Assembly (NCBI GenBank): GCA_965261345.1
Contig: OZ253449.1
Coordinates: forward strand, 224,001 to 288,000
Source of the DNA: Chloroflexota bacterium
GTDB lineage: Bacteria; Chloroflexota; UBA11872; VXNJ01
Reading direction: 5' to 3'
Length of the DNA: 64,000 nucleotides
The translations under genes and the position numbers were made by a program. A model generated the notes under the pieces. That model made no database searches. It was not told the DNA's origin and was given only the letters and a program-made list of their open reading frames with translations. Below, one piece after another: positions 43,946 through 47,760 of the stretch. Positions within the stretch are counted from its first letter, which is position 1. Every line of letters starts with the position of its first letter.

Positions 43946-44248
43946 ATGACCGGGACCCTCGACACAATTCGGGCCAAACGAAAAACCGGCTGCGAACCCA
44001 TCCGCCGTCCCGGGAATCGGGGCGATGTCGGAACTCTGCTCGGGTTCTGGCAGTGGGCCGGATCCGACCTTGTCGGCAACACCATGCGGGGCTGGCTTGC
44101 CGAATACCTGGTGGCTCTGGATCTAGGAATCGCCGACGGGGCGCGAACTGAATGGGCCCCACATGACCTGACAATGGCTGACCGTACGCGGGTCGAGGTC
44201 AAGACCTCGGCCTACGTCCAGAGCTGGTCCCAGAAAGGGCATCCCCCC
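43946..44248 (+). pseudogene. PD-(D/E)xK nuclease-like protein, 5' half
   Basis: FWQWAGSDL..RGWLAEYLVA..HDL..RVEVKTSAYVQSW; broken at a C-run by IS110-A. Confidence 0.65.
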
Positions 44249-44264
44249 TGTACCTTGTATGTTC

Positions 44265-44430
44265 CAAATGGGAAGTCCCGGGTGCGGTAGGGCGCCTGTA
44301 CCTTGGTCCATTGAGACCGTTTTAAAGCACGCTCGCCGCACCCGGATCTCCCGGCGCATAGACCCCGAACAATTGCTCGGTGGGCTCTAGACCCCGTATT
44401 CGCAAGGAAGGGCGTAGCGTCGGGAGTAAC
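44265..44430 (+). ncRNA. IS110-B bridge RNA (ends approximate)
   Basis: Two stem/internal-loop modules. Guides CCTGTACCT (44295-44303), TAAAG (44323-44327), ACAATTGCT (44369-44377) and GCAAG (44402-44406) match the target and donor junctions. Confidence 0.85.
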
Positions 44431-45285
44431 TATAGGGAGTTTTACATATGTGCGAGGACGTATATGTAGGCGTCGACGTTGCCAAAGACACCATCGATGT
44501 CGCCCTCGGCCCCCAGGGCGAAGTCTTTACCCTGCCCAACTCGGCGGCCGGGTTCGGGGCGTTGATCAAGCGCCTCGAGAACTATCTGGTGGCGCTGGTG
44601 GTCATGGAGGCCACTGGCGGCTACGAGGAGCAGCTGGCCGACGAATTGGACGACGCCGGTCATGCGGTGGCGGTGGTGAACCCGGGCCGGATCCGGAGTT
44701 TTGCCCGTTCGCTGGGGGTCCTGGCCAAGACCGACGCCATCGACGCCAGGATAATCGCGCGCTATGCCGAGATGGTCAAACCCCCGGCAAGGGTCCAGCC
44801 GTCCAGGGCAGTCCGCACCCTGGCGGGACTGGTTGCCCGCCGCGGCCAGCTCATGGACCATCTCACCGCCGAGAAAAACCGGCTGGGGAGGCGGGTAGTT
44901 CCGCGTGTACGTGCCGACATCAGGCGCGCCATTGCCGGACTGGGGCGCCGCATCGCCACCCTTGACCGCGATATCGGCAAGCTGATTGAGGCCGACTCCG
45001 ATCTTGCCACCCGCAGCGCGCTGCTGACCTCGGTGCCCGGCGCCGGCCCGCAGCTGGCGGCAACCGCGATCGCCTACCTGCCCGAGCTTGGAACGGTGGA
45101 CGAGAAGCAGATCGCAGCCCTGGTAGGGGTTGCGCCCCTGAACCGCGACAGCGGCGCGTATAGTGGCCGGCGAACGACCTGGGGCGGACGCTCAAGGGTC
45201 AGGTCGGCGCTTTACATGTCGGCCCTGTCAGCCTCGCGCCACAACCCGGTGATCAAGGCTTTTTACGACCGGTTGGTGGAGAGCG

Positions 45286-47216
45286 TTCGCGGTAGGGACA
45301 CCGATTGCTCGGTGCCCCCCGCACAAATCCGTACGTGCGCGTTAACGCATACGGCTTTTAGCTCGGGTATTTGACGGCAAAGCGGTATGCGGGCCACGGG
45401 TGGAGGATTCGGGCAGGGGGAAGATGTGCGGCGCTCAAGGCGCGCAGTCGCTCCCATGGGAAGCGGTCGTTTTGCGAGCGGCGGCGGATGCTGTGTAGCC
45501 ACAGGCGCTCAAGCTCATGTTTGAAGCTTGAGAGGTGCCTGGAGCTGGTAGGAACGGCGTAGTAGCCGAACCAGCCCTGCAACACCATGCCGAGCCATTG
45601 CCCGGTCTCCGCTGGATCGTCGTGCATCGCTGCACGCAATCGCTCCTTGATCGCCTTCAGGGTGCGTCGAACGCGCTTGGCGATGGGCTTGCGCCCCAGT
45701 CCGAACCGTCCGTTTCGTTTTATCCGGCAGTAGTGAGTGAAGCCGAGGAAGTCGAACGTTTCCGGTCGCCCCTCGCCGCGCTTGCGGCGGCTCGCTTGTG
45801 CGTATCTGCCGAACTCGATCAGGCGGGTCTTGTGGTCTGCAAGCTCTAGTCCGTACTCTTTCAGCCTGTCCTGCAAATCCTTTGCAAATCTGGCCGCATC
45901 GCTGCGGTGTTGAAACGCCAGTACGAAGTCATCCGCGTAGCGGACTATATAGACCTCGCCGCTGGCCCGTTCGGGCCGCCATTCTTTGGCAAACCACGAG
46001 TCCAGGACTTTATGCAGGTACACGTTGGCAAGCAGCGGCGAAATCGGCGCTCCCTGCGGGGTTCCCTGCACTGTGTCGGACAGGACTCCGGCTTCCAATA
46101 CTCCGGTGCTCAGCCACTTGCGGATAAGGCGCAAGACTCTTCGGTCTCCGATACGTTCTTCCAGGAACGACATGAGCCGTTCGCGGTCGATTTGGTCAAA
46201 GAAGCTCTTTATGTCCGCGTCAAGAATCCAGTTGACTTTTCGGCGTTCGATGGCGTAGGCCAACGCGTCCAGCGCGTCGTGCGCCGACCTTTTTGGCCTG
46301 AACCCGTATGAGAACCCGGCAAATTCCGACTCGTAGATCGGGTCGAGGATTTGTTGACACACCGCCCGCTGGAGGATCTTATCCTCTATGGATGCGATTC
46401 CGAGCGCTCGCGTCCCCCCGTCCGGCTTGGGTATCTCTACCCTGCGGACGGGGGTCGCCCGGTAGCTCTGTCGGAGTACTCGGTCTTTTAGGTCGAGAAG
46501 GTTCTCTTCCAGGTTCTCCTCGTACATCCTCCACGTGATCCCGTCGGCGCCGGGGGCGGCTTGGGGCTTTAGCCCGTAGAACGCATCCCTTAGCGCGTCA
46601 AGGTCTACGTGGCGGGGGAGCGCGGTGAGTTTCTCCTCTGGGTTCTCCTTGGCAAATTGCCGTACCCGCTCGGCTCCGGGTGACACGGGGACCCACCCCT
46701 GGGTGTAGTCCGTGCCGGTGCCTTGCGGATTTCCCTTGCTTGCAGCCCTTCTCTCCAGCGGCTCCGCCGAGGACTGCTCCTCCTTGTTCGCCGCTTTCGC
46801 AGATACTATGGCCGCATCAGACTTCTGCTCGGCGTGCATCATCGGATTGCGAAACTCCTTATCTTCCCGATGCGGCCCCGGAGTTTGCGAGTACTCCGGG
46901 GCGCCGCGCAGATCTCCCAGTTCCCGGCATTGGACGTACGAACGTGCCTGGGTTCTTCGACACCGCAGAGCCCGGCGCTGACTGGCCCTTCGCGCCAACG
47001 CCGGTGTTGCCTTCGACCGCTTACAGGGTCTCGGCGCTCCGGAATTTATTCTTATTTCGGTGCTCAATAGCCCTGCCCGCCCGCGCCGCTGTCAACGCTT
47101 CATGCCCGGCCTCGCGACCGGTCACGCATGACTCGCGGAGTGCTGCGGATTGGCTCCTTTCCTTTCAGCACGCGGGACTTTCACCCGCTGTCCAATGCCA
47201 GTTAGACTGGCCGTTC
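45286..47216 (-). mobile_element. Group II intron (IIB-like)
   Basis: Domain V AAGCCGTATGCG...GCACGTACGGATT, domain VI with bulged A at -8, EBS1 loop at 47019-47024; removal restores the host reading frame. Confidence 0.93.
45358..46686 (-). CDS. ltrA: Group II intron reverse transcriptase/maturase without an endonuclease domain (GTG start inferred)
   Basis: [43 protein letters not shown] and FDFLGF. Confidence 0.95.
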
Positions 47217-47517
47217 GTAAGCCAAAAAAGGTGGCCCTGACAGCCTGCATGAGAAAGCTGCTGGTGATCCTGAACGCGATGCTGAGGAACGGCGAGTATT
47301 GGCGCGAGGAGTCCGCCTCGGGCTGAACGCCGGGCAGGTCCGATCGCTCTTGCGGGCAAGGTCCCTGGCGAAGCCATGCCCGGGATCGGGCTATTGCGGC
47401 GATTACGCATCCGGTTATCGCCTGTCGATCGGGCTGCGGTCACTATGAACCGCGGTCGGGGCGCTGGATCTATCCTCCCCTTTCTCCTGGACCCCTCTGA
47501 CCCCACCTCTGCCGGAA

Positions 47518-47523
47518 TTGACA
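47518..47523 (+). promoter_or_regulatory. -35 half of the IS110-B circle-junction promoter (-10 TATGTT at 44258-44263)
   Basis: TTGACA, 17-bp spacer across the CT core, then TATGTT once the ends are joined. Confidence 0.8.
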
Positions 47524-47544
47524 ATCAAGACAATTGCTTTAGGT

Positions 47545-47760
47545 AGCTTCATCTGACTAAGCAATTGGGCATGCGCGATGCTCTGCTCAGCCTGGATGAA
47601 GTCAAGGTCAGCGGCCGGGAGTAACCAATCGCCCCTTGTGTCTTTTGAGCACCGTGGGGGGGACCCGTGCCCCGGTGCAGCTGGCCGCGGCAGATGCCCC
47701 GTGGAGAGTTTGCGTCTTAGAACGCCGGTACAGGGATTGGCAGGTGTCGTGGCGGACCTT
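47545..47760 (+). ncRNA. IS110-A bridge RNA (ends approximate)
   Basis: 5' hairpin CTTCATC/GATGAAG. Target guides AATCGCCCC (47627-47635) and G7 (47656-47662). Donor guides GGAGAGTTT (47703-47711) and GGTACAGG (47727-47734). Confidence 0.75.

Follow-up and report, generated by a model that had tools for sequence, protein, structure and literature searches.

An IS110 element whose bridge RNA appears to be aimed at the donor end of another IS110 element

Insertion sequences (IS) that settle in the ends of other transposons have been described before: Muller, Lauf and Herrmann reportedly found in 2001 that IS1383, a member of the IS110 family, specifically targets the inverted repeats of IS1384, and IS4321 and IS5075 reportedly insert into the repeats of Tn21-family transposons. 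Here we analyze IS110-B, an IS110-family element that lies inside a second IS110-family element, IS110-A (B and A hereafter), in a 64-kb stretch (the window; G000:C1:224001-288000, forward strand) of the 2.39-Mb, single-contig genome G000 of a Chloroflexota bacterium. The bridge RNA encoded by B is very probably programmed for CC-TGTAC-CT-TTAAA, that is, the core dinucleotide of A followed by the first 12 nucleotides of the donor end of A. At the sequence level, this reading is supported by the architecture of the RNA, by the matches and covariation between guides and flanks, by repeatedly occupied sites and by the corresponding empty sites.

With IS621 and the IS110 subgroup (Durrant et al. 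2024, PMC11208160; Hiraizumi et al. 2026, PMC13626964), B shares a recombinase with an N-terminal DEDD/RuvC-like and a C-terminal Tnp domain, a left-end RNA with two internal loops, one for the target halves and one for the element's own ends, a CT core, and a putative -35 box in the right end that faces a putative -10 box in the left end. Unlike IS621, B very probably has as its target the donor end of another IS110 element rather than a REP-like host repeat.

B resembles IS1383 in that an IS of the same family is aimed at the ends of another IS; the host in that case is of a different family with inverted repeats, whereas the pair described here consists of two RNA-guided IS110 elements, with B located in the partner's own guide-recognized donor end. 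Orientation-specific insertion at a fixed place in the end of another transposon is common to B and IS4321/IS5075, but the host of the latter is a DDE transposon, and the IS1111 group has its guide RNA encoded downstream of the gene (PMC11187229). The hallmarks of a transposon-end-targeting IS, namely several independent insertions at the same position and in the same orientation in diverged copies of the host element, along with empty copies, were found for B. A recent preprint (Hu et al. 2026, 10.64898/2026.08.14.744561) describes tandem and expanded IS110 loci that form via half matches to the element's own donor ends; these loci share with ours the presence of IS110 modules inside or beside IS110 modules, the lack of target immunity and the use of half-matched sites, but they consist of repeats and growth of the same element, whereas B is a different lineage with a full two-sided target guide for the end of A. 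The aim of IS110 elements at the ends of other transposons is thus already known. For an aim at the donor end of a second IS110, no precedent was found in the literature covered, to which the supplementary target catalogues of Durrant 2024 and Siddiquee 2024, which could hold such a case, did not belong.

Bridge RNA of IS110-B and its guides

The elements in the window are nested, with a group II intron in B, B in A, and A in a host gene. B occupies positions 44256..47538 on the forward strand (3283 nt including the right core CT) and interrupts A directly after its nucleotide 7, with a CT at either junction (44254-55 and 47537-38); A consists of TGTACCT (44249-55) and 47539-49060 and is inserted at a CC core inside a C run of a host open reading frame (ORF). 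The recombinases of both elements contain the Pfam domains PF01548 and PF02371 (E = 5.6e-24 and 3.6e-21 in B; 6e-36 and 3.7e-15 in A) and are about 33% identical over 123 residues. Both are classified in the IS110 family; B, which has a DEDD recombinase and a 192-nt left end that encodes a bridge RNA, is assigned to the IS110 subgroup.

The target-binding module of this RNA (44278..44345, forward strand) is closed by an outer stem (44278-87/44336-45) and contains the left target guide (LTG), an inner hairpin (about 44305-18) and the right target guide (RTG). The LTG, CCTGTACCT, at 44295-44303 is identical to the left flank of B at 44247-44255 in all nine positions. The window contains just these two copies of the 9-mer, 48 nt apart; 0.20 copies are expected from shuffled windows, and 4 of 100 shuffles reach two. 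The RTG, TTTAAAG, at 44321-44327, which includes TAAAG at 44323-44327, is complementary to CT|TTAAA. In the donor-binding module (44348..44426, forward strand; outer stem 44348-57/44417-26), the left donor guide (LDG), ACAATTGCT, at 44369-44377 equals the right end of B plus the core (47530-47538), and the right donor guide (RDG), GCAAG, at 44402-44406 pairs with CT|TGT with one G-T wobble. All the motifs named in an initial sequence-only reading of the locus, namely the 9-mer shared by loop and flank, TAAAG, the element's own right end in the second loop and GCAAG with its wobble, are present.

The two stem/internal-loop modules proposed in the same reading are borne out by thermodynamic folding and by comparison. 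The RNAfold prediction for 44270-44432 contains both modules and has an energy of -72.4 kcal/mol (z = -2.85); of 200 shuffled sequences, 1 was as stable. For the comparison, 26 left ends of B relatives from related genomes were aligned; these sequences are kin, with one locus per genome. RNAalifold on this alignment recovers the same two modules, with 23 base pairs, 15 of which show compensatory changes. When the structure is held fixed, 90.4% of the cells are paired, compared to 31-51% when the partners are slid by one to three columns; the covariation score is 0.363 versus at most 0.091 for the slid partners and was reached by none of 500 shuffles, a statistic to be read with the caveat that the sequences are related.

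The guides track the flanks across these relatives. The variable columns of the alignment are the unpaired loop positions, and the LTG and RTG change together with the flanks. Among the 23 relatives in which the right end could be located, the RTG matches the core plus right flank in 7 of 7 positions in 12 elements and in at least 6 of 7 in 16; the LTG matches the left flank in at least 7 of 9 positions in 12 of the 26 elements. The LDG equals the element's own right end in 22 of the 23, and its first 7 nt recur at the right end in 23 of the 26, one of these being doubtful.

Sister lineages of B provide individual examples in which guide and landing site differ together, in genomes G002, G003, G004 and G005 and at locus L070 (G002-G006 are sister genomes of G000, and L numbers denote individual loci compared). 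A relative in G003, 76% identical to B, has the guides TTTTGACCT and AAGTCAG and is inserted, in reverse, at the site that they match, which lies about 77 nt into an A-type left end with an empty terminus. A relative in G002 (about 89% identical) and an interrupted copy in G000 (137890-142528) share the guides CATTCCCCT and AATGAAG, and both lie in the left end of an IS3-family element, between the terminal TGGCC.. and the start of orfA; this IS3-family element is present in at least 8 copies in G000. Elements in G004 and G005 and at L070 show further, different matched pairs of guides and flanks.

The match to a curated bridge-RNA covariance model that had been proposed as a check did not materialize, as no bridge-RNA family in Rfam matches the left end of B at the gathering score. 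The full model of RF02234 (the Xanthomonas small RNA sX15) aligns to the opposite strand at 44269-44431 with 32.5 bits, against a gathering score of 55. According to the paper describing sX15 (PMC3300014), a complementary RNA, asX7, is the partner of this RNA, and a single Stenotrophomonas genome contains 10 homologues. Such a partner and such a number of homologues would fit the left end of an IS110 element, and RF02234 may represent an unrecognized bridge RNA read on the other strand.

Occupied and empty left ends of IS110-A

When B is removed, its two flanks rejoin into an intact left end of A, CC|TGTACCTTTAGG, with A resuming at 47539 with TTAGGTAGC. In G002, five unoccupied copies of A read CC|TGTACCTTTAGGTAGC without interruption; their left-end DNA is 100% identical to that of A over the query, and their proteins are 100% (four copies) or 99% (one copy) identical. 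The claim that the reconstituted target is A's own terminus thus stood, since unoccupied copies read straight across it, whereas the end of B had been placed at 47545, 7 nt too far, the true junction being 47538|47539.

G000 contains seven full-length copies of B, all with the core dinucleotide CT at both junctions; the 192-nt left end is identical in six of them and 97% identical in the copy at 875274. Five of the seven are located at (C)CT[G/A]TACCT|B|TT.., followed by A-type DNA, all in the orientation of A and 7 nt inside an A-type left end, with host flanks that all differ. The occupied hosts are A in the window, taken as the reference; an A copy at genome 815k with an identical protein and 99.9% identical DNA; an A-like element at 22k with 62% protein identity to the window A and a short left end; an A-like element at 43k with 60.5% protein identity and a TATACC end; and, around the B copy at genome 159109, a left-end fragment at 160k with 81% DNA identity over 119 nt. 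The sole remaining A-like gene in G000, at 108k, is 5'-truncated and lacks a left end, so that all five A-type left ends in this genome are occupied. They represent at least four lineages.

Five B recombinases are 99-100% identical to one another, and the window's own copy, a mosaic, is at about 90%. Given that B copies with 98-100% identity lie inside A hosts that are only about 60% identical in protein, the insertions must be far younger than the split of the A hosts, which implies at least four separate hits at one position. We therefore read the B-in-A arrangements, on these comparisons, as repeated, recent and targeted insertions. The motif CCT[GA]TACCTT occurs 19 times in G000, at the 5 occupied A ends, in the guide-encoding DNA of B in 7 cases, and at 7 chance sites; the latter have the left half of the target without the right half, and all are empty.

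Outside G000, none of the 13 A-type termini found in G002, G003, G005 and G006 has an insert at position +7, and one of these genomes contains an orthologous empty site (L219, in G003) of the G000 copy at 159109. At 12 of the 13 A-type termini examined outside G000, the left end, which reads TGTACC or, in 2 cases, TATACC, has CC directly before it; the thirteenth, L223, was read differently by the alignment. Across a wider set of 41 A-family loci from genome contigs, CCT[GA]TACC is found at the terminus in 27, from Alphaproteobacteria, Verrucomicrobiae, Actinomycetota and Chloroflexota, the other 14 being unresolved.

This end appears to be constrained by A's own guides. The RDG of A, GGTACAGG at 47727-34, is complementary to CC|TGTACC; at the corresponding position in the alignment, both the A-like element with the TATACC end and the copy in G003 read GTATAGG. 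The RDG of A thus covaries with the end variant, so that B would read the same bases as A's own donor guide, which supports the view of the left end of A as a conserved donor end tied to its own guide. The remaining candidate guides of A were read by eye and their places are approximate: LTG AATCGCCCC (~47623-31), RTG GGGGGGG (~47654-60) and LDG GTGGAGAGT (~47701-09).

Two predictions of the sequence-only reading can be judged on these data. Its expectation that homologs of B would lie 7 nt inside A-type left ends, with covarying guides, agrees with five of the seven full copies and with the guide/flank table, and its view of the donor end as conserved and tied to the guide of A agrees with the RDG complementarity, the TATACC covariation and the 27 of 41 loci. 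It had also held that B copies at unrelated sites would speak against it; five copies are at A ends, and two are not.

Several observations weigh against an aim at the end of A. The two exceptional copies, at 14041-15392 (L005) and 875274-876606 (L006), have the A-type guide and lie in IS3-family left ends, at sites that this guide does not match, and the site of the latter, GCAGTCC-CT-TTCGT, fits neither guide type seen in G000. In the window copy itself, the RTG matches the right flank at only 5 of 7 positions including the core and 3 of 5 outside it, against 7 of 7 in the copy at genome 20706. In 6 of the 26 relatives, the LTG matches the left flank at 3 or fewer of 9 positions; some of these weak rows may partly reflect register or truncation errors. 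The relatives in the table are kin, with a single locus each, and the five occupied A copies include one identical pair, which may not represent independent events. None of the 27 resolved A-family termini is split at +7, the arrangement being so far confined to G000 and absent from the 13 A-type termini in four sister genomes, and the exact 24-nt string of the target loop has no match in metagenome contigs.

With regard to the two IS3-located copies, the one at 14041 has an IS3 copy on either side, the two being oppositely oriented, and is taken to be a recombinant, suggestive of recombination or inversion between B copies. One of the two mismatched IS3 sites could have been reached by an IS3-type RNA acting in trans, a mode of action shown for IS621 (PMC11208160).

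Contigs from four sequencing runs, which are short and break at repeats, contain no joint of A without B among the joints listed; one contig, X4, from a run of another study, spans the right end of B into A, and its source may be the same strain as G000. A scan of genome contigs with a loose guide pattern was set aside, as it returned 115 stretches, nearly all of them chance matches in GC-rich genomes; four had a B-type recombinase, and two of these were already known from the set of relatives.

Several further copies deserve mention. In the A-like element at 22k (genome 22061-25068, L002), about 60 nt separate the terminus from the start codon, leaving no room for a bridge RNA, and the gene is interrupted after residue 333 by about 1.8 kb; its site is the best match to the B guides (9/9 and 7/7). 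Ahead of a more distant B-type copy at genome ~148461 (minus strand) lies a duplicate of the copy's first 48 nt, which stops exactly at the copy's own LTG, as if the element had been inserted in the guide-coding DNA of another copy of itself. This arrangement looks like self-targeting because the left guide is a DNA copy of the left half of the target. At L214 (G003:C1:2338010-2341233), the first 50 codons of an A-like gene with an intact left end are directly followed by a fragment of a distant B-family gene (50% identity); this may be another insertion of a B-type element in an A-type element, in a third position. In the interrupted B copy that carries the IS3-type guide (genome 137887), the right junction reads CC and the left one CT, a pair expected from exchange with a target core that differs from the donor core in the second base. 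The idea of an escape allele, with CC in unoccupied and CT in occupied IS3 copies, was dropped, as the CC at the right junction of one occupied copy shows that CC sites are used.

IS110-A itself appears to target C runs: its candidate guides AATCGCCCC and GGGGGGG are accompanied by left flanks that end in ..(G/C)CC-CC and right flanks that start with CCCCC, as seen at 44247-48 and 49061-67 in the window and at the G002 loci L174-L178.

Proposed insertion mechanism and possible consequences for IS110-A

By analogy with IS621, B would leave its site as a circle, in which the joined ends would rebuild a putative promoter, TTGACA-17-TATGTT. The bridge RNA, if expressed, would hold the donor junction of B, ACAATTG-CT-TGTAT, in one loop and the left end of A in the other; the recombinase would then exchange strands at the CT core, and B would land between nucleotides 7 and 8 of A, always in the orientation of A. 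Circle junctions reconstructed in silico contain predicted promoters with 10 of 12 consensus matches for B (TTGACA-17-TATGTT) and 9 of 12 for A, both without B and carrying B (TTGACA-17-TACCTT in either case); the predicted -10 hexamer of A is unchanged by B because B starts with T. A scan of the integrated locus for sigma-70-like promoters found no forward-strand site in the left ends of A or B, and no circle junction is present among the joints listed for the contigs from the four sequencing runs.

The aim of B may be real and nonetheless neutral, in which case the left end of A would be a multi-copy, dispensable and mobile safe harbor, comparable to REP, with A neither harmed nor exploited. 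We consider the chances of this interpretation to be slightly below even. It accords with the choice of other repeated mobile DNA by sister B lineages (the IS3-family left end with its at least 8 copies), with the frequent targeting of repetitive elements by IS110 elements noted in Durrant 2024 (PMC11208160), and with the intact recombinase ORF and bridge-RNA region of A downstream of B. It is less easily reconciled with the landing of B between the putative junction promoter and all the genes of A; in addition, both copies of A in G000 are occupied, compared to five empty copies in G002, a difference that is suggestive only.

A tentative and rather less likely interpretation is that B exploits A, in up to four ways. 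First, in landing 1 nt before the end of the putative -10 box of A (TACCT|T), with its first base restoring the box, B might capture the promoter: in a circularized A carrying B, the junction promoter TTGACA-17-TACCTT would read into the bridge RNA and recombinase of B, and the genes of A would be displaced at least 1.35 kb downstream. Second, the outer terminus of A is intact, so B could ride along with A to new sites and hosts. Third, the LTG of B (CCUGUACC) is exactly complementary to the RDG of A (GGUACAGG), and pairing between the two RNAs could blunt donor recognition by A. Finally, retargeting to a second site in A and to the IS3 end, together with homing of the intron into B, would amount to a three- or four-level chain of RNA-guided parasites, in which guide switching could be a move in an arms race. 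Promoter capture, riding along and guide RNA-RNA pairing, as well as any cost of B to A, are inferred from the positions of the elements.

It is very improbable that B entered an ancestral A only once and that the composites then spread by transposition or duplication of A. A composite could in principle move, as the recognized terminus of A (core plus TGTACC) is intact outside B, and the window A and the A at 815k, 99.9% identical in DNA, both carry B. However, the occupied hosts include lineages with just 60-62% protein identity to A, whereas the B copies that they contain share 99-100% identity; L219, the orthologous A fragment in G003, has no insert; and over 1029 nt the window B and the B at 813k diverge by about 6%, compared to 0.13% between their A hosts. 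These identities already indicate that the phylogeny of B does not follow that of A. Chance identity of loop and flank, or insertion of A beside B, is a negligible prospect: a single 9-mer match is possible, given the two copies reached in 4 of 100 window shuffles, but 7 nt of A lie to the left of B and the remainder to the right, unoccupied copies of A join these parts exactly, and the loop positions covary with the flanks in many relatives.

If the bridge RNA of B is indeed aimed at the donor end of A, the locus bears on the use of bridge RNAs as programmable genome-writing tools, which are under development, as natural targets show to what use selection puts this programmability. B and its relatives form a natural series, 60-90% identical in protein, in which just the guide positions appear to be rewritten and the landing sites moved accordingly, to an IS110 donor end, to an inner site of the same end and to an IS3-family left end. 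With one genome in which all targets are filled and a sister genome in which the same target is empty and the guide is different, this series constitutes a ready-made data set on specificity, including tolerated mismatches (one in the left half; 5 to 7 matches of 7 in the right half). It further suggests that one RNA-guided element can be directed against the end of another where that end is constrained by a guide, a target that the victim can hardly mutate away and a site that could let one element take over the promoter and the mobility of another.

Nested locus, group II intron and mosaic structure of IS110-B

The outermost layer of the nest is a host ORF split by A. Its N-terminal part (43946..44246, forward strand) has no match to a Pfam family, and a paralogue in G000 aligns across the break. 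The left copy of the CC core of A (44247..44248, forward strand), which also forms the first 2 nt of the left target of B, is followed by nucleotides 1-7 of the left end of A (TGTACCT; 44249..44255, forward strand), the last two of which are the CT core used by B. Beyond B, the remainder of the left end of A, with its own bridge RNA (47539..47803, forward strand), is 100% identical to the five unoccupied copies in G002; it is followed on the same strand by the intact A recombinase gene (47804..49045; 413 amino acids) and by the right end (TTGACAAATGGTAGAGAGT) with the right copy of the CC core (49046..49062), a boundary that is ambiguous within the C run. The host ORF resumes near 49068, and its C-terminal part, together with what remains of the C-run target, occupies 49063..49364 (forward strand). 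Judged by the paralogue, the empty host site would contain about 12 C, and 11 are seen here (6 + 7 - 2); the difference may be a homopolymer error. The insertion of A falls in a proline-run codon stretch of the host gene.

Within B, the recombinase gene is present in two parts on the forward strand, 44448..45285 (ATG at 44448; residues 1-279) and 47218..47326, the latter extending to the stop codon. The right non-coding end (47327..47538) contains TTGACA 13 nt before the core, followed by the terminal ACAATTG and the core CT; this end, like the left one, is long, 210 nt without the core (47327-47536). Without the intron, B would measure 1352 nt, as does the copy at genome 813509-814860; an intron-less version in a sequencing-run contig measures 1359 nt.

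The two parts of the gene are separated by the group II intron (45286..47217, reverse strand; boundaries good to a few nt), which carries a reverse-transcriptase ORF at 45358-47067 (RVT_1) and matches the Rfam models RF02005 (164.5 bits) and RF00029 (36.6 bits, below the gathering score of 40). The intron is antisense to the B gene and splits the recombinase at residue 279/280, so it cannot be spliced from the B mRNA; with its gene split in this manner, the window copy of B is predicted to make no recombinase. Its ends and guide are intact, and it could be moved in trans by intact copies elsewhere in the genome. The same intron, 96% identical, is found at genome 819309-821229, where it interrupts a 73%-identical B-type element at the equivalent codon, again in antisense, and an intron fragment at genome 1299458-1299578 abuts a third B-type gene remnant. 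Recombinase genes of the B family appear to be a homing target of the intron and to be irreversibly disrupted by it.

In the window copy of B, which is a mosaic, identity to the other copies is 100% over the first 192 nt and 98-99% over the last 327 nt, and a strongly diverged patch lies in the gene at 44643-44820. The mosaic likely arose by gene conversion from a related lineage, and the other version of the patch is present in contigs of three of the four sequencing runs (X1, X4 and X6).

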